Counted from the first letter of the stretch, positions 1-41,210 are shown. The stretch is 42,498 nt of DNA from Candidatus Woesearchaeota archaeon (GCA_964357505.1 CAYHLN010000002.1:1-42498); one strand, 5' to 3'. Notes: generated by a model from the sequence alone, not told the origin. Numbers and translations are program-made.

Positions 1-1290
1 AATTTCAATATGAATACTTGGGTCTTCTTTACCAACCTTACGCAGCACATCAATCAGCTTAGGCAGATCAGCAGATCGTACCACTTCAATCGACTTAGTG
101 ATAACGGGCTGGAAGATGTGCTTGATTTCTTCAAACGGTTGATCTTCTTGGGTAAGGATCGTGTCCCCAACCTCAGTATTGAGCCCAACAATAGCAAGAA
201 TATTACCTGCAGGTACCGCGTCAAGCTGCTTAGGCTTGATACCTTCATAGACAAGTACTTGCTGCACACGATATTTCTTCTTTTGCATCGTTGAGTAGAG
301 TTCCATACCATTGGTGATCGTCCCCGAATATAATCGTCCTGCATACACTTCCTTCCCAACACGTGGATCAATGATTACTCGCGTAACAACGAAGGCAACT
401 TTTCCATCTTTATTACAAGTCATCAGATCCTCACCAAGCTGTGAGTTAAGATCTCCCTTCCAGATCTTAGGAATACGATAGACCTGTGCATCAAGAGGGC
501 TCGGTAGGTGCTTAACGACCATATCCAAAATAACTTCATGCAATGGAGCATTCTTCCAGGTCCAGTCCTGTCGCTCTGCCTCTTCAAGTTCATAAATAGA
601 GTAAATGTCCTTGAAGCTAATGGCACGCTTCTTCATGTACGGCACCGAGAGCGCCCAATTCTCTCTCGCGGAGCCAAATGCAACGCTTCCATCCGCTACA
701 TTCACTTGCCACTTCTGCGCAAGTTCCGGTTCAGCAATCTCTTGTAGGAGCAAGTTAAACTTGCTGATAATCTTCATGAAACGCTCTTGCATTTGCTCGG
801 GCGTTACTTTCAACTCTTTGATCAGCCGATCCACTTTATTGATAAACAGCACAGGTTTGACACGCTCACGTAATGCTTGCTTCATAACTGTTTCAGTCTG
901 CGGCATGATCCCTTCAACTGCACATACAAGCACAACAGTACCATCAATCGCTCGCATTGCTCGAGTCACGTTACCTGAAAAGTCAACGTGGCCTGGCGTA
1001 TCAATCAAGTTAATTAAATATTCTTCCCCATGAAATTCGTGCGGCATGCTTACGTTTGCTGCATCTACGGTCATCAAGCGTTCTTGCTCGTCCTTATGTT
1101 GCCAGGTCGCCATGCCTTCTTCCAGGTCGCCGGCATTCTTATTCGACATCATGCCTGCAGCCGCAAGCAAATTATCAGTAAAAGCAGTTTTTCCGTGATG
1201 TATGTGCGCGCTCGTCGCTATATTACGAATGTTTTTCTGATTGCTCGTCATTCGATCAATCTTCTCAAGTCCTGTCTCTTTCTCTACCAT
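1..1290 (-). CDS. fusA: Translation elongation factor aEF-2, N-terminal 430 codons (C-terminus lies beyond the window edge)
   Basis: Reverse translation from the ATG at 1290-1288 gives MVEKETGLEKIDRMTSNQKNIRNIATSAHIHHGKTAFTDNLL...LINLIDTPGHVDFSGNVTRAMRAIDG...FINKVDRL. These are the G1 (AHxxHGKT), G3 (DTPGH) and G4 (NKxD) motifs of EF-2/EF-G. The frame stays open to position 1, which explains its absence from the complete-ORF track. Confidence 0.93.
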   Translation of the reverse strand, partial: MVEKETGLEKIDRMTSNQKNIRNIATSAHIHHGKTAFTDNLLAAAGMMSNKNAGDLEEGMATWQHKDEQERLMTVDAANVSMPHEFHGEEYLINLIDTPGHVDFSGNVTRAMRAIDGTVVLVCAVEGIMPQTETVMKQALRERVKPVLFINKVDRLIKELKVTPEQMQERFMKIISKFNLLLQEIAEPELAQKWQVNVADGSVAFGSARENWALSVPYMKKRAISFKDIYSIYELEEAERQDWTWKNAPLHEVILDMVVKHLPSPLDAQVYRIPKIWKGDLNSQLGEDLMTCNKDGKVAFVVTRVIIDPRVGKEVYAGRLYSGTITNGMELYSTMQKKKYRVQQVLVYEGIKPKQLDAVPAGNILAIVGLNTEVGDTILTQEDQPFEEIKHIFQPVITKSIEVVRSADLPKLIDVLRKVGKEDPSIHIEI

Positions 1291-1475: not shown

Positions 1476-1619
1476 TTACTTGCCACCCATCATACCGATG
1501 GAGCCTATAATTGCAAGAACTCCGCCGATTGCAGGCAACCAATAATTAGCGCCCCACCATTGACCAACTACTGCGATAATTCCGCCAACGAGGGTAAGCC
1601 ACATTTGCCATCCAGCCAT
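1476..1619 (-). CDS. Small hydrophobic protein (47 aa, two predicted TM segments, Gly/Trp rich)
   Basis: Translation is MAGWQMWLTLVGGIIAVVGQWWGANYWLPAIGGVLAIIGSIGMMGGK. A strong SD (AAAGGAGGTG) lies about 12 nt upstream of the ATG and an oligo-T tract follows. The ORF is below the track length cutoff. Confidence 0.6.
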   Translation of the reverse strand: MAGWQMWLTLVGGIIAVVGQWWGANYWLPAIGGVLAIIGSIGMMGGK

Positions 1620-1703: not shown

Positions 1704-2669
1704 TTATGTATCAAGAAATATACCCTGAGGGGCAACATCTCCCTTAAGAATTTCAACATTTGTATAGATATCGTGTATCTCCATTCTTACTCCAAGCTCG
1801 TTTCTGAACTCAAGAAGGATCGTTCTCAAATCGTGCGAATTCTTCGCAATAACTCCAACATCTACATCCCACTGCTCATGTCCCAAATACTTGTAAAAAT
1901 AAAAAACCCTCGGGTGTGCTCGCAAAAAAGACTTTAGAACCTCATCAGCAAGCTCTACATCTAACTTAAGCTGCAAATTGTAAAGCTCGTAACCAAGTTT
2001 AGTCGCATCAATAGAAATCGTATATCCTTCAATCACCCCTAATTTTTCAAGATGCTTGATACGGTATTTTACTGCATTGGCACTGAGGTGTGTTTTAGAA
2101 GAAAGTTCAACATAATCCGCTCGCGCATCTTCAGAGAGCAAATGCAGTATTTTCTTATCTATGGCATTAAGTTTCACGAGAGACATATCCTTGGGGCGAA
2201 TCTTTCTATCACTTGCCCCAATAATCTTCGCCGGATAGATTTCCTGCTCTGTCGAACTGTTAGTAACCAAATAATTCTTGATATGGCGTCTTCCCTCCTG
2301 AAGAATTTCCTTAATGATGCTCTTTAAATGATTCTTATCTCTCGATAGAATATCAAAAGCCACATTCCACTTGCCCACCACTACTCCGACATACGTAACA
2401 AACGGATGGTTCGTAATAAATGAAAAGAATTCTTTTTCTTCTGCAAGACTGATGCCCTTTAACTGGATGCCACATCCATTTCTAAAATAACCGAGTTTTT
2501 CAAGATTAATAATGGGATAGAAATGGGCAATAATGTTTTGCTCCACAAGCTTACGAATGCGATACGCTACAACCTCTCTGCTCAATCCAACTTTCCTGCC
2601 CAGCTGGTTGAACGGCATTCGCGAATTCTTAAGCAACTCCGCAAGTATCTTTTCGTCTTTCTTATCCAT
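1704..2669 (-). CDS. Tandem (double) Lrp/AsnC-family transcriptional regulator, two HTH + RAM modules in one chain
   Basis: Module 1 reads DKKDEKILAELLKNSRMPFNQLGRKVGLSREVVAYRIRKLVEQNII. Module 2 reads DAIDKKILHLLSEDARADYVELSSKTHLSANAVKYRIKHLEKLGVI. Each is followed by about 80 aa with an Lrp effector-domain pattern (...LGY...). The 321 aa length is about twice a normal Lrp. Confidence 0.85.
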   Translation of the reverse strand: MDKKDEKILAELLKNSRMPFNQLGRKVGLSREVVAYRIRKLVEQNIIAHFYPIINLEKLGYFRNGCGIQLKGISLAEEKEFFSFITNHPFVTYVGVVVGKWNVAFDILSRDKNHLKSIIKEILQEGRRHIKNYLVTNSSTEQEIYPAKIIGASDRKIRPKDMSLVKLNAIDKKILHLLSEDARADYVELSSKTHLSANAVKYRIKHLEKLGVIEGYTISIDATKLGYELYNLQLKLDVELADEVLKSFLRAHPRVFYFYKYLGHEQWDVDVGVIAKNSHDLRTILLEFRNELGVRMEIHDIYTNVEILKGDVAPQGIFLDT

Positions 2670-2691
2670 AATTTACATTAATGATAAATGA

Positions 2692-2699
2692 TATATAAA
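2692..2699 (-). promoter_or_regulatory. TATA box (TTTATATA on the minus strand) for leaderless lrp-like gene
   Basis: The centre is about 26 nt upstream of the ATG at 2669. No SD is present. Confidence 0.5.
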
Positions 2700-2734
2700 T
2701 ATTTGCATAATAGTAAAATAATAAGCCCAAGATA

Positions 2735-2742
2735 TTATATAA
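2735..2742 (+). promoter_or_regulatory. TATA box (TTATATAA) for the leaderless four-gene operon
   Basis: The centre is about 26 nt upstream of the ATG at 2764. No SD is present. It is divergent from the lrp-like promoter in the same 94-nt AT-rich spacer. Confidence 0.5.
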
Positions 2743-2763
2743 GAGACAATTAACTACTTTTAC

Positions 2764-3480
2764 ATGACAGAAAGAAATACCCTAGATAATGCAATAGAGG
2801 ATGCCTATAGAGATAGCTGGCTCAAATATCGTATGGCTTATGCACCCACTCAGGAACTAAGGGCAATTATAGAAAAGGCAGAAAAAGAAGAATTAGATGA
2901 AGCTAAACGGAAAATTATAGAAAATTTTGCAGAAAATCATCAAGGCATAGCCGATGTGGTGAAGGGGAAGGCAACATTTTATTCTTATGGAGGACCAATT
3001 CTAGAACATGTAAAAAATGTTGAAGAACATTATGAGAAGAGAAGATTTGGTTTCGTATCAAGAAGGGCATTATGTGGCAGAGATAGTAATCTTCACACTT
3101 CACGAGCAGCAAGAGACGCTTTTAATTACCTAACAACAGAAAGAATAATCGACTCCGAGAGCTTCTTTACTCCTAAATTAGTTTATCCAGGATCGGCCAC
3201 ATTTGAAAGATGGGTAGAAAATACGATGGGCTATGTAGGAGGAGTTTTATTAGTCTCATCAGCCGTTGCATCAATCGGAGCTTGTAAGGGATATGTTTTG
3301 GGAGAGCAAGATGGAGCTTTCCTAGGGGCAGCTATAGGATTTCTTTTACCGAATCTTATTTTGGGTGTAGGGCTGCCTCTGATAAGTCAAAAATTCTCCC
3401 GGTGTAAAATCTCAAAACAGAGAGAAAGGTTTGAGGCGGCTTTGAAGAGTTTAGATTCTCATATAAGGGGAGATAAATAA
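2764..3480 (+). CDS. Hypothetical protein P1: about 170-aa helical soluble N-domain plus two Gly-rich TM helices (GxxxGxxxG glycine zipper GAFLGAAIG)
   Basis: This 238-aa ORF is the first gene of a coupled operon. Its C-terminus reads MGYVGGVLLVSSAVASIGACKGYVLGEQDGAFLGAAIGFLLPNLILGVGLPLI. I recognise no family motif. Confidence 0.7.
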   Translation: MTERNTLDNAIEDAYRDSWLKYRMAYAPTQELRAIIEKAEKEELDEAKRKIIENFAENHQGIADVVKGKATFYSYGGPILEHVKNVEEHYEKRRFGFVSRRALCGRDSNLHTSRAARDAFNYLTTERIIDSESFFTPKLVYPGSATFERWVENTMGYVGGVLLVSSAVASIGACKGYVLGEQDGAFLGAAIGFLLPNLILGVGLPLISQKFSRCKISKQRERFEAALKSLDSHIRGDK

Positions 3481-3481
3481 T

Positions 3482-3742
3482 ATGACAAGAGATAAACCAA
3501 GTGAATTAGAAGCTATTGGCCCCTTTATAGCACTTAGTCCGATACCTGCTACAGCAATAGGCTTTGTTTTTTCCACCAATGAAAGTATTGGCTATTCAAT
3601 CTTTTACAGCGCAGTGATAGCTTCGGTATACACTCTTATCGCTCTGGTTGGTCCTTTATGTGCGTATCAGGATGAGAAAGAAGCTTACGAAAACGAACGA
3701 AAACGTCGAAAAATATCCGTGCTAGAGGGAAAAATAAAATGA
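3482..3742 (+). CDS. Hypothetical small membrane protein P2 (86 aa, 2 TM, basic/acidic C-tail)
   Basis: It starts 1 nt after the P1 stop. An SD-like GGGGAG lies about 10 nt upstream. It shares a GPLC motif with P3 (LVGPLCAY). Confidence 0.65.
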   Translation: MTRDKPSELEAIGPFIALSPIPATAIGFVFSTNESIGYSIFYSAVIASVYTLIALVGPLCAYQDEKEAYENERKRRKISVLEGKIK

Positions 3743-4056
3743 CTCTTGAAAATGAGTTGCCTGAAAACAGAGTGTTCAGTTCAAGATTAGCATTTGCACT
3801 AAACAGATATCACGAAGTAAACAGGTTTCATCTTGAAAATGGAGCAGAATTACGTAGATCTCCTAACTTTGCAATAAAGGCAATTGGAATTCTTGGGCCA
3901 TTATGTCATATGGCCCTTGCGTATTCTCCGTTAGGACTCGTAGCAATATTAGTAGCAATGGAAGATGCTGAATATTCCGAAAAGAGAGGAGGTTACGTTG
4001 GCAGTACCTTCAATCTTGACAGAGATCCTACAGAAAGCAACGAGGCGGTACAATGA
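3739..4056 (+). CDS. Hypothetical small membrane protein P3 (105 aa, hydrophobic core ILGPLCHMALAYSPLGLVAILVAM)
   Basis: It overlaps P2 by ATGA. An SD-like GAGGGA lies upstream. Confidence 0.65.
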   Translation: MTLENELPENRVFSSRLAFALNRYHEVNRFHLENGAELRRSPNFAIKAIGILGPLCHMALAYSPLGLVAILVAMEDAEYSEKRGGYVGSTFNLDRDPTESNEAVQ

Positions 4057-4415
4057 ACAGAAAAACACAAAATCGCCTGCTAAATGGATCACTGTGGGCA
4101 ATTCCTTGTATGCTTATTGGATCTTACTGTTTTAATATAGGATTAAATGCGTATAGAATAAGTCAATATAGGCAGCTAGGCGAAGGATACAGTGTGCGCG
4201 AGACAGCCTCTGAAAGAATATTTACTCTTGGCAACGGACGCGGAGGTAGAGACTATAATAAAAACGGGACGCTCGATCAAGTTTTTGTGACAATGGCACT
4301 TTCTCCTATGATGGGCGGTCCAGGTTTTGCATCATGGCCGATTAAAACCACCGAAGACGACCTTAAGAGATTCGAACGGGCACATTATTTGCTCAATAAA
4401 AATAAGCAAAAATAA
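4053..4415 (+). CDS. Hypothetical protein P4 (120 aa, N-terminal signal-anchor, extracytoplasmic domain with a DxNxNGxLD Ca-binding-loop-like motif)
   Basis: It overlaps P3 by ATGA. An SD-like GAGGCGG lies upstream. The TM segment is LWAIPCMLIGSYCFNIGL and the motif is RDYNKNGTLDQ. Confidence 0.65.
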   Translation: MNRKTQNRLLNGSLWAIPCMLIGSYCFNIGLNAYRISQYRQLGEGYSVRETASERIFTLGNGRGGRDYNKNGTLDQVFVTMALSPMMGGPGFASWPIKTTEDDLKRFERAHYLLNKNKQK

Positions 4416-4427
4416 GACTATAAAAAA

Positions 4428-5024
4428 TTATCGCGCAGCGTCAGCTTGCTTCTCAGCGTCATTCTTTTTATTCATGGCAAAGCTTTCCATGTTACCTTCA
4501 GAGGCAAGCATAATCTCTCTTGCTAGACTGTCCGCCATTTTGGTTTTCTTACCAAATGACTTTTGATAGGAACCCTGTACGAACCATCTTGTTGCGATAT
4601 TAATGCGCCTCAACGGACTCACGTCTACTGCCTGCGGATAGCGAGCTCCACCATATTCAATAGTAGTCGTCTCATCTCGCGGAGAGGCAGTTTCAATTGC
4701 CTTTACCAACACCTGTAAAGGGTTCTGCTTGGTCTTGGCCTCAATAATGCGCAGCACATCCAAGATAGTCTTCATATTTCGATTATATTTGCCTGAAGAC
4801 CAAGACGTAATGATCTTTTGCTTCTTACCCAAATGTCCAGGCACGGCAAGATGATTTGCAAGCTTCTCAAGAATATGCACTTTTGCATTTCCAAACTTTC
4901 CGATAGCACGACCGTGGCTCTTCAAAATAAGTCGTGGTTCAACATTCAAGTACGGCTTTAATGCCAAATCACTAACAACAACATCTTTCGAATCGTAGAT
5001 ACCAAATAATTTTAGTTCCATCAT
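4428..5024 (-). CDS. rps7: 30S ribosomal protein S7 (uS7, archaeal type)
   Basis: The sequence contains LFGIYD...HGRAIGKFGNAKVHILEKLANHL...NPLQVLVKAIETASPRDETT..YGGARYPQAVDVSPLRRINIA. An SD GGTGGAG lies upstream. Confidence 0.95.
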   Translation of the reverse strand: MMELKLFGIYDSKDVVVSDLALKPYLNVEPRLILKSHGRAIGKFGNAKVHILEKLANHLAVPGHLGKKQKIITSWSSGKYNRNMKTILDVLRIIEAKTKQNPLQVLVKAIETASPRDETTTIEYGGARYPQAVDVSPLRRINIATRWFVQGSYQKSFGKKTKMADSLAREIMLASEGNMESFAMNKKNDAEKQADAAR

Positions 5025-5356
5025 GCTAAACGCTCCACCAAAAGTTTTACTGCTGCACCACGGCGCTGCTGATATGCTCGAAATGCGTTCGTACCGAATC
5101 CATCCCTATAGCGATTCTCCACGCCATCAATAAGCTCTCGTTCTCCCGCAGTTGGTCGTGCGAGATCAAAAAGCGCATAGCTTTCGTCAACAGCCATTCC
5201 TTCCCTAAGCTCAATGATCACTTCATCTGCATGCTCTTGATAAGAAGCGGTAATGCCTGCACGCTGAGCAGTTCTCCCCAGTTTGTCTACCAATCGTGCA
5301 CTCAAAGCCATAGGTACGCGAGCAGGTGCTTTAGCAGGAGCGTCAGACGTTATCAT
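5021..5356 (-). CDS. Hypothetical 111-aa protein with an N-terminal ribbon-helix-helix-like segment, inserted between rps12 and rps7
   Basis: The ORF shares 1 nt with the rps12 stop (TAATG) and 4 nt with the rps7 start (ATGA). The segment RVPMALSARLVDKLGRTAQRAGITASYQEHADEVIIEL fits the strand-helix-G.(S/T)-helix pattern of CopG/Arc/MetJ. It is Ala/Arg rich and looks more GC-rich than its neighbours by eye. Confidence 0.55.
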   Translation of the reverse strand: MITSDAPAKAPARVPMALSARLVDKLGRTAQRAGITASYQEHADEVIIELREGMAVDESYALFDLARPTAGERELIDGVENRYRDGFGTNAFRAYQQRRGAAVKLLVERLA

Positions 5357-5858: not shown

Positions 5859-6221
5859 ATGGTTCATAGAAGAACGCCGCTTAAGGACGTAATTACTCGA
5901 TGTATGGAGGGTTACCCTGAGGCGCGACTTGACGAGCACCCATTCACTACGTGGATGTCAAAACCAAAGGCAGGGTATTCAATATCCCTAGGAGCAAGCA
6001 AGGAAAGAATCATTATAGCTGAAAGTAATTATGTCTGGCAAACAAATCAGGGAAAAAGACGAAGAGAAGCAACACTGTATGCTATGGCTACAACAAATGG
6101 AAGATCTCCAGAGGAGCTATTGCGTGATATTCATGGCACCCGAGAAAGAGAAGTCTGTGTCAGAGATATAGAGCAAATGGTAAGGGATTACCTGGAAAGA
6201 AACGCACAGGCATTTACCTAA
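5859..6221 (+). CDS. Hypothetical 120-aa protein encoded antisense to the flanking nusA and rps12
   Basis: It is the only ORF of at least 60 aa in the 442-nt gap between nusA and rps12. A TATA-like CTTAAAAG lies about 25 nt upstream and GAGGA about 10 nt upstream. Its stop overlaps the nusA stop by 4 nt. Confidence 0.5.
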   Translation: MVHRRTPLKDVITRCMEGYPEARLDEHPFTTWMSKPKAGYSISLGASKERIIIAESNYVWQTNQGKRRREATLYAMATTNGRSPEELLRDIHGTREREVCVRDIEQMVRDYLERNAQAFT

Positions 6222-6649: not shown

Positions 6650-9600
6650 TTATTCAGATTTTTTCCCCGCACCTTTACGTACTAAGGGGCCAGTCACCTT
6701 TACCAACAGTCCAGGTAATCCAGTTCCGACAGGCACTGGCTGGTTGAGCATGATATTTTCAATAACGGATTCAAGTTCATCTTTTCTGCCTTGAATGGTT
6801 GCATTGATAAATTGTTTATCAGGCGTTTCGAATGCAGCTCGAGCAAAGATACTTGATTTATCAGAGACAATACCCATTCTGGTTACTCCCTTTACAACAC
6901 CAGATGAAGTCATCGCATCGGCAATCAAATCAAGATGTCTGATGTTAATTTCCAATCCCTGTCCTTCAAGAACTTTCTTAATTTCATTCACAATGGTCTG
7001 TCGTGCAGCTTCAATACCAAGCACTTCAGCAGTCTCATGAATATCGTTTGAACTTATTCGATCCCTATCAGCGCCTTTTATCAACAGCGTATCTTTGATA
7101 TTGCTCCCAGAGGTAATAACAACGAATTCCCTGCCTCTATTTGCAACAACAACTTGATTAACGCCTTTGACGCCAGAGACAATTGCTTTCTTGATTTTCT
7201 CTTTAAGCTTGTAAATTTCCTTGAAGCCAAGATCTTGTACTTGAAGCACGATAGAGTTCTCGCGTGCCTTGCAGACGAATCCCTTGTCATTAAGACGATC
7301 AGCGATAGTCTGAGCACCAGCGTGTACGGTGCGCAGCGCATTGCTATCAAGCTCAATCTCAATTTTCTTACCGCCAAAGTCAATGCGTACTTCTCGCGTA
7401 ATTTCCTCAAGCATAACTTCTTTGATTTTCTCAGCAATCACTCGTGCATCCTTTTCATTGTTATACTCCTTATCCAAGTAAACAGTCATCTGAGGTGTTG
7501 AGGGCTTCTTACGAGCGTCAAAGATTTCAATCAAACGAGGTAGTCCAAGCGTAACCTGCATTTCTGCAACTCCCGCAGAGTGGAATGTTCTCAGAACCAT
7601 CTGTGTGGATGCTTCTCCAAAGGATTGTGCAGTTACGACTCCGACGCATTCACCTGGAGGGACTTTCATACCAAGATGCAATCCTGAAACATCGACTCCA
7701 TCTCCGCCATACAAGAATTGAACAATATTTCCAGAGGCATCGCGTACGGTCTCATCATATTCAACTTTCAAGTCTTGTAATGCGCTTACTAAACGGCGAT
7801 ACAAGTAACCAGACTTTGGCGTCCTCAGAGCAGTATCCATCAGAGCGTCTCTTCCAGTAATTGCTCCAAAGAAGAACTCGGTCGGTTTAAGCCCATCAAT
7901 AAAAGAAGATTTGATAAATCCACGAGCTGCCGGTTTCAAATCTCCACGCTCGAAGAATGAGAGGGTACGATTCGTGTATCCAAAGTTGATTCGATGGTCC
8001 CATAGGATTTGCTGACCAACGCAACAGCCAATTTGAGTAATATTTAGTAAGCTTCCTGCAGCGCCTGCAGAGATCATCTTATTGACGTTGCTATCTACAG
8101 GGAAGTTCGTTCGAACAATCTTACTTGCTTCTGTTCTTACCTCGTTTAACGTCTGAGCAATACGCACTTCACGTGATTCTTCCAAGGTCTTTCCTGGAAT
8201 CAACATCAGCTTACCAGAAGCAGCTTCACGGATAATTTCATCTGTTTTATGCTCAGCATCTTTAATGACCTGGTTAGTTAGCTCCTTCATTTTAGCCGGA
8301 ACGTTAAGATCCTGCAATGAGAGTGTGTATCCTTTGCGAGAAAGGTACCAGGTACCAAGTGCAAAAGCGCGTCTAATAGTCTCCAATACTTCTTGGCGTG
8401 AAACTTGCTTATCAAGCGTCTTGATAAGTTCGCCTTCTTCTACTCCAATAGTCGAGCTTCCAATCGAATCAGTAGGAATTTTAACATCAACGCCCTTTGG
8501 CAAGATGTGTGCGAAGATTTCTTTACCATCAATTTCCTTGCCCTTTAAAACCGCGCTCACACCAGAGCTGAAAAGCAATTGGTCAGCATCAGCCTTGCTC
8601 AATGACGACTTACTCAGCAAGTAAACGCCTGTAATTCCATCTGCAATACATCCTACAAGATTAGTATTGTTCTTGGAAGAAATAATGTTGTTCTTCACGT
8701 CCAGCAGCACGGTAGCTTCAGCGCGTGCTTCTTCTGTCTGAGGTGAGTGAATGTTTACTTCATCTCCGTCGAAGTCAGCGTTGTAAGGGAATGCAACTGC
8801 AGGATGGATTCTAAATGTTCTATCAGGCAATACACGCACGTAGTGAGCCATCAGGCTTTGCTTGTGAAGAGAAGGGTGACGATTGAAGAGTACAACATCT
8901 CCATCGCGCAAGTGTCGTTCAACCTTATAGCCTGGCTGAATTTCATTACACAAATCTTCCTTCAGCTCTTCAGCAATACGTTTTTTCTTTCCATCAGGGC
9001 GCACAACATAGTTAGCTCCGGGGTATTTCTCGCCCTGCCTAATAACATCCTTAAGGCTTTCCAAATTAGCAGTAGTCACACTCTCAGAAACAGTAATAAT
9101 ACGAGCAATATCAACAGGCACACCAATTTCATTGATAGCAAGGAACGGATCAGGTGACACGACAGTTCTTCCAGAGAAGTTAACACGCTTTCCGGCAAGG
9201 TTCTTTCTAATACGACCTTCCTTACCCTTAATACGTTCAGTGATCGTTTTTAGCGGCTGTCCTGAGCGATGACGTGCAGGCGGAATGCGAGTGATAGAGT
9301 TATCAAAATAGGTCGTCGTATGGTACTGCAATAAGTCCCATAGATCTTCAATAATAACTTCTGGTGCTCCCGCATTCAAGTTCTCCCAGAGTCGCTGATT
9401 AGCGCGGATAATATCTGAAAGCTTGTGTGTCAAGTCATCTTCGGAACGCTCTCCCGACTCAAGCGTGATCGATGGTCGAACGTTAACGCTCGGCACAATA
9501 AGCTGAGAAAGAATAGCTGATTCAGGTCTACAGGTACTTGGATTTACTCCAACCTTCTTCATCTGCTCGTCTGTAATCTTGAGCAACATCTCACGAATTT

Positions 9601-10090
9601 CAGTAGGGAAGATGCGTCGCTTACCCAATAAGAACTGACTTGGCTTTTCTAAGCGTACTCGCTCTTGCTCTTCATTACAATGAGGACACTTTTTCTTATC
9701 GCGTGCCTTCTTTGCGCGTTCAAGAGGGCTAAACGTTGCAGCCTTCTCATCTGAAAGCAAGATCTTGCCACAATGGTGACAGAAGCTTCTCAAAAAGAGT
9801 TCAATCAAAGGAATATATTTGATATGTAAAACAGGACGAGCAAACTCAATCATTCCAGGGTAACCGGGACAATCCTTCATCGTAGCTCCATCAGTTCTAC
9901 ATCGAACGCCAGGATCAATAGCGCCCAATCGCAGATCCATCAAACCACCATCAACCGGGAAGCCATCAACGTCATACAGTTCAGGTGTGACAATCTTTGC
10001 CACGCTTAACTTCTTGATAATCTCGGGGCTAACTAGGGCGAACTTCAGCGCTTTTACCTTCTTCTTGATTACGTCGTCGATGTTATTCAT
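6650..10090 (-). CDS. rpoA: DNA-directed RNA polymerase subunit A, unsplit A'+A'' fusion (1146 aa)
   Basis: N-terminal Zn motifs are present (CHHCGK...CPHC). The catalytic NADFDGDEVN motif and the bridge-helix region GRDALMDTALRTPKSGYLYRRL are present. The A''-type trigger-loop region TAQSFGEASTQMVLRTFHSAGV...TLGLPRLIEIFDARK follows in the same frame. The junction is around 7655-7690. Confidence 0.95.
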   Translation of the reverse strand: MNNIDDVIKKKVKALKFALVSPEIIKKLSVAKIVTPELYDVDGFPVDGGLMDLRLGAIDPGVRCRTDGATMKDCPGYPGMIEFARPVLHIKYIPLIELFLRSFCHHCGKILLSDEKAATFSPLERAKKARDKKKCPHCNEEQERVRLEKPSQFLLGKRRIFPTEIREMLLKITDEQMKKVGVNPSTCRPESAILSQLIVPSVNVRPSITLESGERSEDDLTHKLSDIIRANQRLWENLNAGAPEVIIEDLWDLLQYHTTTYFDNSITRIPPARHRSGQPLKTITERIKGKEGRIRKNLAGKRVNFSGRTVVSPDPFLAINEIGVPVDIARIITVSESVTTANLESLKDVIRQGEKYPGANYVVRPDGKKKRIAEELKEDLCNEIQPGYKVERHLRDGDVVLFNRHPSLHKQSLMAHYVRVLPDRTFRIHPAVAFPYNADFDGDEVNIHSPQTEEARAEATVLLDVKNNIISSKNNTNLVGCIADGITGVYLLSKSSLSKADADQLLFSSGVSAVLKGKEIDGKEIFAHILPKGVDVKIPTDSIGSSTIGVEEGELIKTLDKQVSRQEVLETIRRAFALGTWYLSRKGYTLSLQDLNVPAKMKELTNQVIKDAEHKTDEIIREAASGKLMLIPGKTLEESREVRIAQTLNEVRTEASKIVRTNFPVDSNVNKMISAGAAGSLLNITQIGCCVGQQILWDHRINFGYTNRTLSFFERGDLKPAARGFIKSSFIDGLKPTEFFFGAITGRDALMDTALRTPKSGYLYRRLVSALQDLKVEYDETVRDASGNIVQFLYGGDGVDVSGLHLGMKVPPGECVGVVTAQSFGEASTQMVLRTFHSAGVAEMQVTLGLPRLIEIFDARKKPSTPQMTVYLDKEYNNEKDARVIAEKIKEVMLEEITREVRIDFGGKKIEIELDSNALRTVHAGAQTIADRLNDKGFVCKARENSIVLQVQDLGFKEIYKLKEKIKKAIVSGVKGVNQVVVANRGREFVVITSGSNIKDTLLIKGADRDRISSNDIHETAEVLGIEAARQTIVNEIKKVLEGQGLEINIRHLDLIADAMTSSGVVKGVTRMGIVSDKSSIFARAAFETPDKQFINATIQGRKDELESVIENIMLNQPVPVGTGLPGLLVKVTGPLVRKGAGKKSE

Positions 10091-16050: not shown

Positions 16051-16136
16051 ATACGTTTCTAAAAAGACAGCTTAATAAATCTTATGCATTTTTTAAGATA
16101 ACATAACTTTTTAAATGAAAATTGGTGAATAGTAGT

Positions 16137-16619
16137 ATGAAACAACTACACCTTGGGGCAAAATGGCAATTCCGCATCGGGGGATACTTCGGCTTTGGTT
16201 TTGTAGTTCTATTTTTTGGAATATGGTTAGGATTTACTAGTCTTTTGATTTTTCCTTCAGTATCTTTATTTTTAACTTTAATCATAATTTATCTTATTTT
16301 GGTTATAATATTAACTGAAATTTACACGCAGATGTCATACACAAGATGGTTCTATGAATTTGCCAAAGATGAATTAAAAATAGAGAGGGGAATAATCTGG
16401 AAAAGATATAGCAATGTTCCATATCAGAGAATACAAAACGTTGATATCCAGAGAGGAATTATCGCCAGATTTCTAGGCTTCTCAACCGTAATAGTCCAGA
16501 CGGCGGGCTATTCTGCACCAGCAAGGTATCAAGCAGAAGGATATATCCCTGCAGTAGATATGAAAGAAGCAGAAAATATAAGATCTTTTTTAATGAAAAA
16601 GATTTCTAAACGAAGATAA
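16137..16619 (+). CDS. Membrane protein with a bacterial-PH (YdbS/YdbT-like) domain
   Basis: It has two N-terminal TM helices followed by ...ELKIERGIIWKRYSNVPYQRIQNVDIQRGIIARFLGFSTVIVQTAG. I place the start at the first ATG (16137), which has a TTTTTAAAT box about 25 nt upstream. The track ORF starts at a TTG at 16122. Confidence 0.75.
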   Translation: MKQLHLGAKWQFRIGGYFGFGFVVLFFGIWLGFTSLLIFPSVSLFLTLIIIYLILVIILTEIYTQMSYTRWFYEFAKDELKIERGIIWKRYSNVPYQRIQNVDIQRGIIARFLGFSTVIVQTAGYSAPARYQAEGYIPAVDMKEAENIRSFLMKKISKRR

Positions 16620-21468: not shown

Positions 21469-21957
21469 TTAAATAAATTTGAAAGCACCAAGCACCACTC
21501 GAGTAGTTGGCATCAACGCATCCTGCGCAGCAAGATCACGCAGCTCATCAAGAAGAAACCATCTTCCTTCAAGAACATCTTCTGCCGGGGTAATAGGCAG
21601 TATAGGCGCCCCACAAAAGGCATGAACATAGCGACGAACGCCATCAAAAGAATGATAGCCTACATTCTGACCGCTAAAGATGAACGGGTCTGACCCAAGT
21701 TCTCGGATAGCGGTCCGATGCGCGGCCTCAGCTGGCTTCTCACCTACTCGCAGCAGCCCCCCACAAGAAACGCCCCACTTTCCAGCCCATAGCGAGTCTC
21801 GCTGCTGGGTGAGGTAAACATGATTAGCACCATTAAGAAGTAAAACATAGATTCCACCAAGAATATCAGTGCGCTTATCTATATCCGCGCGTGGTTTGTC
21901 TCCAATCACGGTTCCTTGTTCATTAAAAAGAGCAATTCGTGAACTGGCCTCTTGCAT
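21469..21957 (-). CDS. Nudix hydrolase
   Basis: A Nudix-box-like segment GGLLRVGEKPAEAAHRTAIRELG is present. Confidence 0.75.
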   Translation of the reverse strand: MQEASSRIALFNEQGTVIGDKPRADIDKRTDILGGIYVLLLNGANHVYLTQQRDSLWAGKWGVSCGGLLRVGEKPAEAAHRTAIRELGSDPFIFSGQNVGYHSFDGVRRYVHAFCGAPILPITPAEDVLEGRWFLLDELRDLAAQDALMPTTRVVLGAFKFI

Positions 21958-22002
21958 GTAAGTAAAAGCTATATCTTAGAATATTTAAAACCAATGTAAA
22001 AT

Positions 22003-29392: not shown

Positions 29393-29947
29393 ATGGCTGT
29401 ATTCCTCTGGATTATTCTTGCACTCATTGCACTCGTAGTAATTATCTTCATTTACTACTACAATAAGTTCGTTGTGCTAGCTAATCGCATTGACAACTCG
29501 CTTTCCCAAATAGATGTTCAGCTCAAGAAGCGTGCAGATTTAGTGCCAAACTTGATCAACACAGTCAAGGGATATGCAAAACACGAGAAAGAAATCATGA
29601 AAGACGTCACTGATGCGCGTAAGGCGCTTGTATCAGCAAAAACCATTGACGCTAAAGTAAAAGCTGGCTCAGAACTACAAGCAGCACTACGATCAGTATT
29701 CGCTATTGCAGAAAACTACCCTCAATTGAGAGCAAATGAAAACTTCCTACACTTACAGCAAGAACTAGCTGCAATTGAAGATAAAGTAGCCTATGCACGT
29801 CAATATTATAATGACTCAATCCTTAGCTACAATAACATGGTAGAAACCTTCCCTGGAACGTTCTTTGCAGGAATCTATGGTCATAAAGAACGCGAGTTCA
29901 TCGAAATAGCTCCTGAAGAGCGCGCAGTGCCAAAAGTTAGCTTTTGA
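29393..29947 (+). CDS. lemA: LemA family protein
   Basis: An N-terminal TM is followed by YNKFVVLANRIDNSLSQIDVQLKKRADLVPNLINTVKGYAKHEKE...NYPQLRANENFLHLQ. A TTTATAAAA box lies about 25 nt upstream. Confidence 0.9.
   Translation: MAVFLWIILALIALVVIIFIYYYNKFVVLANRIDNSLSQIDVQLKKRADLVPNLINTVKGYAKHEKEIMKDVTDARKALVSAKTIDAKVKAGSELQAALRSVFAIAENYPQLRANENFLHLQQELAAIEDKVAYARQYYNDSILSYNNMVETFPGTFFAGIYGHKEREFIEIAPEERAVPKVSF
29924..29943 (+). repeat. Direct repeat copy 1 (gcagtgccaaaagttagctt), last codons of lemA
   Basis: It is a perfect 20-bp match to 30778-30797. It encodes AVPKVSF followed by a stop. Confidence 0.9.
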
Positions 29948-29988
29948 ATAAAAAGATGGTTTTTTATAGTTAGTTAAAATATATTAAT

Positions 29989-30732
29989 ATGAGAAAAGAC
30001 ACTCTCCAAACAGCCTTAATAATCATATGCATTTCTATTTTTATTTTTGACTTTGCGTTCTATAATAATCAAGGATACATCGATTCCTTACACAAGTCTC
30101 TAAAAATAGTAATATCACTAGCTTTAGCGGTCATTCTACCACTCACTATTTTTAAAAATTTTATTTGGAGAATTTTATCATGCATACTAATTCTCATTCC
30201 GCTAACAATATTTGGAATGTGGTGGACTAATTATCCAGACGCGGGGCCTCTTGTATTTATTTTTTATTACGCACCATTAGTTTTTATTCTAGTCATTTTA
30301 GGGCATTTTACACTTAAATTATTGGAAAATTCTCCTAAACCAAAAAAATGGGCCATCGTTCTAATAATTGTTTTTATAGGCTTATTTATTTTAGCAGTCT
30401 TGAATATCTCAAGCGGTCTTGCAGACCTAGAAAGAGCCGAACTCTCTGAAAGACAAAAAGAATGTAATAGCTATATGAGTTCAGAAGAATTATCAAGTAA
30501 TTGCGCAAGACTAAAAGAATTAAATTTAGAAGAATACTATTTTAAGCTTGCTTGTGGCGAAAACTATCCTGACAAAGAATTTTGGAGGGTCTTTGCTTTT
30601 GATGATAACGGAACAGGCCATGAGGTAAGTCGTCCAAGAAACAACAATTTAGAAGAAAAAGAACAATGTTTTTCTAAAGTCAGAGAAAGATTCTCTTTTT
30701 TCAGACCAAGAGATTATATCTATAGTTATTAA
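29989..30732 (+). CDS. Hypothetical polytopic membrane protein (247 aa) with a Cys-containing soluble C-domain, carried on an AT-rich cassette
   Basis: It has about 6 hydrophobic segments. Its own TTTTTATAG box lies about 24 nt upstream. Two hand-counted 60-nt lines give 27-30% G+C, against 45% for one lemA line. Confidence 0.7.
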   Translation: MRKDTLQTALIIICISIFIFDFAFYNNQGYIDSLHKSLKIVISLALAVILPLTIFKNFIWRILSCILILIPLTIFGMWWTNYPDAGPLVFIFYYAPLVFILVILGHFTLKLLENSPKPKKWAIVLIIVFIGLFILAVLNISSGLADLERAELSERQKECNSYMSSEELSSNCARLKELNLEEYYFKLACGENYPDKEFWRVFAFDDNGTGHEVSRPRNNNLEEKEQCFSKVRERFSFFRPRDYIYSY

Positions 30733-40377: not shown

Positions 40378-40815
40378 ATGACCGAACAAACACTTCGTAT
40401 TTACTTAGAACAAAGATTAGGAATAAAAGCCAATGATGCAGAAGAAACTAAAATAAGTGAGCTACTTTCAAGAATGTGTGAGAATGAAGCGGAAGCTGGA
40501 AATCATCTTGGTGCAAAACACTTAGGAAATATTACTCTAATTTTAGGATCCGAAGAGCAAAGACGTAAGACCTTAGAAATATTTGAAATCCCAATAGATC
40601 GCAAATATGCCATTGCTGATTTAGTCCGCGAATACATGATAGAACAAGAATATGACACATTTGAAACAATAGCTGGAGAAATTAGCCCCAATTGTAGATG
40701 GGATGAATATTTTAACGACCAAGGAGAAAGAAGAAGAGTTGAATTTATACGTAATTTTAATCTACTAAAAGCAGATAATCTAAAAATTCAATTATTTGAA
40801 ATGGAGAAAGAATGA
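40378..40815 (+). CDS. Hypothetical acidic soluble protein Q2 (145 aa)
   Basis: An SD GGAGG lies about 12 nt upstream. The N-terminus MTEQTLRIYLEQRLGIKA resembles that of Q3. Confidence 0.65.
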   Translation: MTEQTLRIYLEQRLGIKANDAEETKISELLSRMCENEAEAGNHLGAKHLGNITLILGSEEQRRKTLEIFEIPIDRKYAIADLVREYMIEQEYDTFETIAGEISPNCRWDEYFNDQGERRRVEFIRNFNLLKADNLKIQLFEMEKE

Positions 40816-41210
40816 CACAAACACTAGAAGACTATCTTTCAAGAATTAAAGGGCTCAATGTAAAAGCAAAAAACATTTCAGATGAGTTAGATATAGTCAG
40901 AACCGTAAATAAAACAAGAAAAAGAGAAGGCCTTCCTCAAGGACCAAGAGATTCTTTTATGACTCAGGAAGATATGACTATTTCGGGTAGCGAATTTATG
41001 ATTGGGTTTCTCAAGAATTATGTTACTAATTATATGAATTCGGTAGGATACAACAAGGCAAAAGACGATGAAGATTCTAGAGACAATGAAATATGGTATA
41101 GTCCAATGGACACTAGAAATAGACCAAAATTAATAACTATCCTAGAAACCTCTGAAACAGAAAGAGACCTCTGTCTCGTAGAATATCTAGGAAGTCATGC
41201 TCCTAAATAA
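40812..41210 (+). CDS. Hypothetical soluble protein Q3 (132 aa), possible distant paralogue of Q2
   Basis: It overlaps Q2 by ATGA. An SD-like GGAGAAAG lies upstream. The N-terminus is MTQTLEDYLSRIKGLNVKA. Confidence 0.65.
   Translation: MTQTLEDYLSRIKGLNVKAKNISDELDIVRTVNKTRKREGLPQGPRDSFMTQEDMTISGSEFMIGFLKNYVTNYMNSVGYNKAKDDEDSRDNEIWYSPMDTRNRPKLITILETSETERDLCLVEYLGSHAPK

Follow-up and report, generated by a model that had tools for sequence, protein, structure and literature searches.

In a 42,498-nucleotide (nt) stretch of DNA from a Candidatus Woesearchaeota archaeon (GCA_964357505.1 CAYHLN010000002.1:1-42498; the whole of this stretch is called the window below), a 3.1-kb block inserted between rps7 and fusA encodes a tandem Lrp/AsnC-type regulator, double-Lrp, and an operon of four small membrane-protein genes, P1 to P4, which is transcribed away from the regulator from a shared spacer. 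We read this block, with modest confidence, as a lineage-specific regulator-plus-cargo cassette of Woesearchaeota- and Pacearchaeota-type DPANN archaea whose cargo is exchangeable. The promoter between regulator and cargo is the most conserved element of the cassette, and the genes behind it differ from genome to genome.

The four operon genes, P1 (2764-3480; 238 amino acids, aa), P2 (3482-3742; 86 aa), P3 (3739-4056; 105 aa) and P4 (4053-4415; 120 aa), lie on the plus strand. Their structure is as a first-pass annotation, made from the sequence without database searches, had described it. The open reading frames (ORFs) are translationally coupled, with a 1-nt gap between P1 and P2 (TAA-T-ATG) and ATGA overlaps at the two following junctions. 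P1 has a TATA box (TTATATAA) 22-29 nt ahead of its ATG and no Shine-Dalgarno (SD) box, while each internal gene has a purine-rich SD-like box (GGGGAG for P2, GAGGG for P3 and GAGG for P4). Hydrophobic segments occur in all four products (residues 153-180 and 182-211 of P1, 11-33 and 35-63 of P2, 43-77 of P3 and 9-31 of P4), and the motifs that had been pointed out are present: GAFLGAAIG in P1, GPLC in P2 and P3, and DYNKNGTLD in P4.

To these structural features a coding signal can be added. Codon-usage log-odds, for which 16 confidently identified genes of the window served as the training set, were positive in the annotated frame of P1 (+0.10 per codon), P3 (+0.06) and P4 (+0.11), compared with -0.11 to -0.34 in antisense ORFs and +0.04 to +0.29, mostly +0.2 to +0.3, in core genes. 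GC content at third codon positions (GC3) was 0.27-0.35 in P1-P4 versus about 0.40-0.45 for those core genes that were checked, such as rps7 and nusA. The codon use of the operon is atypical, resembling that of other accessory plus-strand genes in the window, and across the region of the block GC content is lowered and GC skew is reversed. P1 and P4 evolve under purifying selection, with ratios of nonsynonymous to synonymous substitution rates (dN/dS) against their homologues of about 0.3-0.4 and about 0.2-0.25, respectively.

The double-Lrp regulator and its two-way promoter

The regulator gene (1704-2669, minus strand) encodes a chain of 321 aa with two complete Lrp/AsnC units, each consisting of a helix-turn-helix (HTH) and a RAM domain. 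A tandem Lrp/AsnC regulator facing away from the operon across a 94-nt spacer (2670-2763) had been proposed in the first-pass annotation, and profile searches bore this out: there are two HTH_AsnC domains, and the fusion is a true one. PF13404 matched residues 1-41 and approximately 168-210 (E=1.1e-28, 99 bits against a cut-off of 27), the Pfam AsnC_trans_reg (RAM) model fell slightly short of its cut-off of 25 with 23.7 bits, and residues 2-127 and 164-290 align over the HTH and RAM of PH0061 (8-132), LrpA (5-117) and PH1519 (22-141). The protein therefore has both the AsnC-type winged HTH and the RAM domain by which the Lrp/AsnC family is recognized. Since the two units are fused in one chain, it is expected to act as a covalent dimer. 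Orthologues with 43-59% identity occur in at least eight other DPANN loci, the closest being in metagenome-assembled genomes (MAGs) of Woesearchaeota, Pacearchaeota, Nanoarchaeota and Micrarchaeota; the source organism is thus probably a DPANN archaeon. Among the single-copy core markers given in a Nanobdellota preprint is a winged-HTH regulator, which could not be linked to double-Lrp.

Tandem Lrp-like units in one chain are also a feature of the siroheme decarboxylases NirDL and AhbA-AhbB, to which double-Lrp has weak matches (PDB 4ch7, E=3.8e-5; the AhbA model of NCBIfam, E=1.7e-11; Pfam NirdL-like_HTH). However, the score was 44 bits against a cut-off of 140, and DNA-binding Lrp proteins match double-Lrp better. 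The conserved promoter with its candidate operators, described next, argues that double-Lrp is a DNA-binding regulator and not an enzyme.

The spacers of 10 double-Lrp loci, from MAGs of Woesearchaeota, Pacearchaeota, Nanoarchaeota and Micrarchaeota and from metagenome contigs, were aligned. All 10 retain a pair of TATA boxes and a pair of dyads with the pattern TTTRC-N6-GTAAA, in the order double-Lrp ATG, dyad O1, TATA box, dyad O2, TATA box, cargo ATG. In the window, candidate operator O1 (2672-2688, TTTACATTAATGATAAA; conserved block in the alignment, ATTTACTATAATGA) lies between the start codon of double-Lrp and its TATA box, and that box (2692-2699, minus strand, TTTATATA; conserved block, TATATAAAT) is 23-30 nt from the ATG. 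Candidate operator O2 (2702-2717, TTTGC-ATAATA-GTAAA) lies between the two TATA boxes; its conserved form is TTTGC-N6-GTAAAA, with alignment columns G44, T45, A47 and A48 invariant in 10/10 loci, and the motif is carried by an eleventh locus, L025, as well. About 14 nt of variable sequence follow before the block around the cargo TATA box (2735-2742, plus strand; conserved block, GTTTTATATA). The distances between TATA boxes and start codons imply that both the double-Lrp mRNA and the first cargo gene are leaderless.

A position weight matrix (PWM) for O2 was built from the other loci only, leaving out the window's own site, and both strands of the 42.5-kb window were scanned with it. The best match was O2 itself (18.5 bits, at 2702) and the second best was O1 (13.4 bits, at 2671 on the opposite strand); the exact O2 sequence occurs once in the window. 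The third-best match (21951-21967, plus strand, CTTGCATGTAAGTAAAA; 12.4 bits) falls where a NUDIX gene (21469-21957, minus strand) begins, and lies below the shuffle maxima and is not significant. Lrp-type control of the operon, another proposal of the first-pass annotation, is well supported by the conservation of the TATA boxes and dyads in 10 loci and by the position of the two best PWM matches, both inside the spacer.

The arrangement resembles that of known Lrp/AsnC systems, or feast/famine regulatory proteins (FFRPs), in its HTH_AsnC and RAM domains, in the palindromic, AT-centered candidate sites in the promoter and in the divergent target gene. A divergent target combined with autoregulation is known from Escherichia coli AsnC-asnA, Sulfolobus LysM-lysWXJK, Pyrococcus LrpA and M. 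jannaschii Ptr2. O1, which covers the regulator's own transcription start, recalls the autorepression by Pyrococcus LrpA, which blocks RNA polymerase from a site placed in the same way; O2, upstream of the TATA box of the target, recalls Ptr2 and LysM, which activate from sites just upstream of the target TATA box. The present system differs from these in having both units in one 321-aa chain, in dyads spaced 5-6-5 rather than 5-3-5, in targets that are small membrane proteins rather than genes of amino-acid metabolism, and in a set of target genes that changes between genomes behind a constant promoter.

On this pattern, double-Lrp would present two HTH pairs from a single chain. Bound at O1, over its own transcription start, it would repress its own gene, and bound at O2, which is placed 18 nt ahead of the cargo TATA box, it would control the leaderless cargo operon, most likely through ligand-dependent activation or derepression. 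The centers of O1 and O2 are separated by approximately 30 bp, or about three helical turns, a spacing that suits cooperative binding.

Exchange of cargo between genomes

The P1-P4 quartet was not found together in any other locus examined. The first-pass annotation had taken the four products for a dedicated membrane complex, with co-occurrence of the four genes beside a double-Lrp as the expectation in related genomes, and neither idea was upheld: homologues of P1 and of P4 occur without their partners, each adjoining double-Lrp independently, and other double-Lrp orthologues carry different cargo.

The closest P1 homologue (45% identity; loci L002 and L003) is divergent from a double-Lrp with 59% identity to that of the window; it is followed by tRNA-Ser and MazG, and ribosomal protein P1 is encoded upstream. 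A further P1 homologue is divergent from double-Lrp in L023, and another lies beside double-Lrp in L024. In L025, a P4 homologue is the first gene divergent from double-Lrp, and P1, P2 and P3 are missing. L029 (3-1648) contains two tandem P1-family genes and then a gene for a 152-aa protein with a transmembrane (TM) anchor and a canonical EF-hand loop (DEDGNGEVDKME), which links the P1 family to external proteins with calcium-type loops independently of the window.

A survey that started from the regulator yielded six full-length double-Lrp orthologues (43-56% identity) in GTDB genomes, whose divergent cargo is different again. In L004 it consists of eight small TM ORFs coupled in a chain. In L005, L006 and L009 it comprises one or two copies of a 130-aa soluble family (MxxCGFNEKML) and then small TM-anchored EF-hand proteins; L008 has a single copy of this family and no EF-hand protein beside it. 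In L007 the cargo is a signal-anchored protein with the loop DTDGDSCID. The double-Lrp cargo pool thus includes the P1 family, the P4 family, TM-anchored EF-hand proteins, the cytoplasmic CGFNE family and other small TM proteins. The CGFNE proteins (about 130 aa, soluble, starting with M-x-x-CGFNEKMLKGL and often duplicated) have no Pfam match and are absent from the window; their genes are located at 9497-9889 in L005, 9118-9904 in L006, 9447-9851 in L008, 8654-9452 in L009, and 43-465 and 4499-4873 in L024.

Calcium-type loops are enriched next to double-Lrp. In all loci together, 925 ORFs are 60 aa or longer; the EF-loop pattern was found in only 5 of them, three of which are small ORFs beside double-Lrp. 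Pfam EF-hand matches of the cargo adjacent to double-Lrp are present, below threshold.

The cargo proteins and the surrounding genes

The first-pass annotation had recognized no known family in P1-P4, and database searches agreed: none of the four had a match in Pfam, NCBIfam, PHROGs or PADLOC, and for P1 and P4 the same was true of PDB and Foldseek. Against PADLOC-DB and PHROGs nothing reached E<=0.1, the best being three PHROGs matches with E-values of 0.15-0.47. P1-P4 gave no tblastn match to phages or plasmids, and scans of viral contigs (including IMG/VR) for P2, the P4 family and double-Lrp returned no relatives. Neither an integrase nor a tRNA target nor flanking repeats were found around the block.

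P1 is a member of a real, small family. A word-indexed search gave its first homologue, with 45% identity, and an exhaustive HMMER search of 1.84 billion representatives gave 25 proteins at E<1e-3, of which 22 were at E<1e-10. A 23-sequence alignment divides the protein into a conserved helical N-domain (approximately residues 1-150; consensus ATFYSYGxPIIEH..VEE.Y..RRFG.VSK..ILG.D...YL.E..IIDP..FF.S), a glycine-zipper TM hairpin (154-201) and a C-terminal helix, SKQRxxFExALxxLD, in which R220 is kept in 21/23, F223 in 23/23 and D231 in 22/23 sequences. The GxxxGxxxG zipper to which the first-pass annotation had drawn attention falls in the second TM segment (TM2) and is a family trait, with G184 in 13, G188 in 16 and G192 in 18 of the 23 members, and P1 probably oligomerizes through this hairpin. 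The strongest conservation, however, is not in the zipper but in the predicted cytoplasmic domain and the C-terminal helix. Lysines and arginines together average 3.2 ahead of TM1, 0.7 within the loop and 6.7 beyond TM2, which by the positive-inside rule would place both conserved soluble parts in the cytoplasm and the short loop, variable in length and sequence across the 23 members, outside.

The AlphaFold2 model of P1 is confident (predicted local distance difference test, pLDDT, 85.4, and above 90 over most of the N-domain; predicted template-modeling score, pTM, 0.71), yet Foldseek found no relative of it in PDB (best E=0.37, TM-score <=0.24) or in BFVD, and the P1-family profile had no match among PDB sequences. 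The only Pfam match, to DUF6861, was sub-threshold (E=0.013, 15.4 bits versus a cut-off of 28) and covered the glycine-rich hairpin. A search of GTDB genomes and Joint Genome Institute (JGI) metagenomes found no P1, although this negative is weak, since the metagenome scan also missed the known JGI homologue L002. Structural similarity of P1 to the alpha-pore-forming toxins ClyA, AhlB and MakA, helical bundles with a hydrophobic head, was not established: these top Foldseek matches were non-significant (E>=0.37, TM-score <=0.19). Comparison revealed no relation of the P1 family to the 231-aa protein of L024 or to P2.

Two known groups resemble P1 in part. With glycine-zipper proteins and toxins (Pfam Gly-zipper, DUF6861, VacA-type) it shares the GxxxGxxxG motif in TM2, kept in most members, but no match was above threshold and what matched was only the low-complexity, glycine-rich TM segment. 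In architecture alone, P1 recalls CorA/Mrs2 and MCU, cation channels of the two-TM type whose cytoplasmic domains are large: it is predicted to have a large helical N-domain in the cytoplasm, a C-terminal TM hairpin whose outside loop is short, and a C-helix that is again cytoplasmic. P1 differs in lacking a GMN or DIME-type loop, in its varying loop length and in having no match in Pfam, PDB or Foldseek.

P4 also belongs to a real but tiny family: when it was searched alone, two homologues, with 49% and 44% identity, were found. It consists of an N-in signal anchor and a beta-rich domain of about 85 aa that is predicted to be external, and three motifs, GEGYxVRE, SPMMGGPG and RFERA..LL, are invariant in the three-sequence alignment. 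The model, with a pLDDT of about 68-94 over residues 41-120 and 86-94 in most blocks, has a TM helix, six beta strands and a C-terminal helix. Foldseek found no significant fold match for it, and the P4-family profile had no match among PDB sequences. Both the signal anchor and the calcium-like DxNxNGxLD loop noted in the first-pass annotation are there, but the loop is not an EF-hand. It resembles EF-hand and DxDxDG loops in its D-x-N-x-N-G-x-L-D form, and is partly kept in the family (DYNKNGTLD, DDNMDDLID and DKGLDGILD in the three members), with D1, D/N5, the hydrophobic residue at position 8 and D9 kept in the two homologues; other double-Lrp cargo carries canonical 12-residue EF loops. 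It differs in that position 12, glutamate in EF-hands, is hydrophobic (F, L and L in the three members, rather than Glu or Asp) and in that the loop is placed between beta strands in the model, and P4 has no Pfam match. Homology between P4 and the 156-aa protein of L007 was not established (hhalign E=0.095; nothing with phmmer).

P2 is predicted to be a TM hairpin with a basic C-tail, and P3 to have a soluble N-terminus, a single long hydrophobic segment (43-77) and an acidic C-tail. Both are singleton clusters at 90% identity. No relative of either was found among the ORFs of the 21 loci compared, and a metagenome scan with P3 returned only another assembly of the same organism; their status as ORFans is provisional. 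Support for P2 as a gene comes from its junctions, a 1-nt gap before it and an ATGA overlap after it, and from its SD box. Descent of P2 and P3 from a common gene, considered because of the shared GPLC, was rejected, as the match spans only 8 residues (BLASTP E=0.011 in a single comparison) and does not amount to homology. The C-tail of P3 (residues 77-99; 3967-4035 in the window; AEYSEKRGGYVGSTFNLDRDP) aligns with the P1-family core motif E.Y..RRFG.VSK..ILG.D at an hhalign E-value of 0.031, a marginal match that may be due to chance or may be a trace of shared ancestry.

The block is flanked by fusA (1-1290, minus strand), which is cut by the window edge, and by rps7 (4428-5024, minus strand). 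These belong to a minus-strand string of rpoB, rpoA, nusA, rps12, rps7 and fusA. The first-pass annotation had the block interrupting the linkage of rps12, rps7 and fusA; the block does sit between rps7 and fusA, but it is one of three places at which the rpoB-fusA string is broken in the window, two further interruptions lying within the cluster. Between rps12 and rps7, and thus as a second insertion in the S12-S7-EF2 string, there is a 111-aa ORF (5021-5356, minus strand) that has 1 nt in common with the rps12 stop codon and overlaps the rps7 start by 4 nt (ATGA). This ORF has a GC content of 0.50 versus about 0.43 locally and a strong codon log-odds value (+0.21); its product is rich in alanine and arginine, forms a singleton cluster and has no family match. 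Between nusA and rps12 lies a singleton 120-aa ORF (5859-6221, plus strand), whose sole match is a faint one to a FitA-like ribbon-helix-helix (E=0.089). On the other side, between double-Lrp and fusA and 3' of double-Lrp, a 47-aa glycine-rich ORF with two TM segments (1476-1619, minus strand; beginning MAGWQMWLTLVGG) has a GGAGGTG SD box and a codon log-odds of +0.20 and forms a singleton cluster. No counterpart was seen in the other loci, and its membership of the cassette is uncertain.

Elsewhere in the window, low-GC plus-strand islands at 16122-16619, 29393-30732 and 40378-41210 share the weak codon signal of P1-P4; they contain a bacterial PH domain protein, LemA with a 247-aa membrane ORF, and two coupled ORFans. 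The rpoA gene (6650-10090, minus strand) is a single 1146-aa ORF that carries the NADFDGDE motif of A' as well as the GEASTQM..TFHSAG motif of A'', and therefore appears to be unsplit, whereas most archaea have A' and A'' as separate genes. The window sequence matches a Hainich groundwater assembly from the 0.1-µm filter fraction (ENA ERZ1292624), and replicate assemblies differ from it by a single base, outside the operon.

Function, alternative readings and significance

If the block is a regulator-plus-cargo cassette, P1 would be a membrane-tethered protein with its conserved parts facing the cytoplasm, P2 and P3 would be species-specific TM-hairpin proteins, and P4 would be a signal-anchored protein exposing a beta-rich domain with a calcium-type DxxxDGxLD loop. 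Such a cassette might tune a membrane or envelope function in which divalent cations bound outside the cell take part, the signal being a small molecule that acts on the RAM domains, although a cation-dependent membrane or envelope role is our best guess and no more. A bolder version seems to us a long shot: a system particular to DPANN archaea that senses or transports divalent cations, in which P1 would be a new family of two-TM ion channels, oligomerized through the zipper, gated by the cytoplasmic domain and the C-helix and working with external calcium-binding anchor proteins of the P4 family and of the TM-anchored EF-hand type, and which the fused Lrp would switch on in response to a metabolite from the host.

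Several points weigh against reading the block as a regulated cassette of this kind. The PWM maxima of 30 shuffled sequences had a mean of 14.0 and reached 18.4 bits, so that the 18.5 bits of O2 are barely higher. Archaeal FFRP sites have been reported as 5-3-5 dyads (PMC2715240), to which the 5-6-5 geometry of O1 and O2 bears a likeness of form only. The binding of double-Lrp at these dyads is itself argued from their conservation and position. One P1 homologue, in L020, is divergent from a TrmB regulator, and hence the link between P1 and double-Lrp is not absolute. Most of the context contigs are 1-3 kb long, so that missing neighbors are weakly documented. The codon log-odds of P2, at -0.01, are borderline, and although P2 and P3 had no match in large databases, they were queried there only within a concatenated P2+P3+P4 sequence that missed its own constituents. 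Finally, phmmer and hhalign detected no significant relation between P4 and the EF-hand cargo proteins, and the motifs that suggest calcium binding are short and score below Pfam thresholds.

Four other readings were weighed against the cassette. If P1-P4 were the subunits of one dedicated channel or pore, translational coupling would keep them stoichiometric, and the tight junctions (the 1-nt gap and both ATGA overlaps), the membrane character of all four proteins, the family-wide zipper of P1 and its CorA/MCU-like architecture would fit. We consider this unlikely, for P1 and P4 have homologues that occur in the absence of the rest of the quartet, P2 and P3 have none among the 21 loci compared, the variable outside loop of P1 has no conserved selectivity motif, and no channel gave a fold match. 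It is likewise improbable that P2, P3 or both are non-functional, either as chance ORFs or as decaying remnants between P1 and P4. Both are singletons with no relatives in the loci compared, the codon use of P2 does not favor its own frame, and the faint likeness of the P3 tail to the P1 core motif is what a remnant of a duplicated P1 might leave, tandem P1 genes being present in L029. But each ORF is exactly phased, with an SD-like box and no untranslated gap, both have clean TM segments, P3 favors its annotated frame, and the negative homology evidence is weak, coming as it does from a faulty query in the only large-database search.

The lowered GC and GC3, weaker codon signal and reversed GC skew, the presence of ORFans, the interruption of a conserved gene string, the differing location of the cassette between genomes, and the alpha-pore-forming toxins at the head of the (non-significant) Foldseek list of P1 would all suit a recently acquired accessory island, such as a glycine-zipper toxin with immunity proteins or a defense or mobile module. 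This reading is very unlikely nonetheless, given that no relatives were found in PADLOC, PHROGs, phages, plasmids or IMG/VR, that the block is without integrase, tRNA target and flanking repeats, and that regulator and promoter are conserved (43-59% identity for the regulator) across several DPANN groups, a pattern to be expected when a chromosomal gene is inherited vertically. Moreover, the predicted cytoplasmic placement of both the N-domain and the C-helix of P1 argues against a secreted toxin. Alternatively, P4 and the other signal-anchored cargo could be pilin- or adhesin-like proteins for calcium-dependent attachment to a host, with P1-P3 as accessories for assembly or anchoring. The long N-terminal hydrophobic helix followed by beta-sheet in the P4 model has the general shape of a pilin, the type IV pilin PpdD ranks fourth in its Foldseek list, external calcium loops recur in double-Lrp cargo, and DPANN archaea are episymbionts (PMC11329633). 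Nevertheless, the PpdD match is non-significant (E=0.53, TM-score 0.21), the three P4-family N-termini have no class III signal-peptide cleavage motif in common, which would consist of a charged residue plus G/A immediately ahead of the hydrophobic helix, and no pilus ATPase or platform gene lies nearby in the window; we regard the idea as distinctly doubtful. The exchangeable regulator-plus-cargo cassette is the reading that we retain.

Both the type of regulator and the divergent layout of regulator and target were already known. What is new is a tandem fusion acting, as proposed here, as a DNA-binding regulator with a promoter that has been kept in several DPANN groups, together with exchangeable cargo behind that fixed promoter and two uncharacterized families with confidently modeled but unmatched folds. 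In the literature searched, no description of a tandem Lrp or of a regulator-cargo cassette in DPANN archaea was found.

The genomes of DPANN archaea are tiny and poor in regulators, and for a large part of their proteins no function is known; many of these are believed to work at the membrane, where it meets the host cell. A fixed promoter with an exchanged operon behind it offers a handle on this dark matter, as it defines a candidate regulon, and P1 and P4 add two new families under purifying selection that have no known fold relative. The candidate operator sequence could be tested in vitro without cultivating the organism. For Lrp-type regulators, the cassette would be a case in which the promoter stays constant and the cargo is modular.

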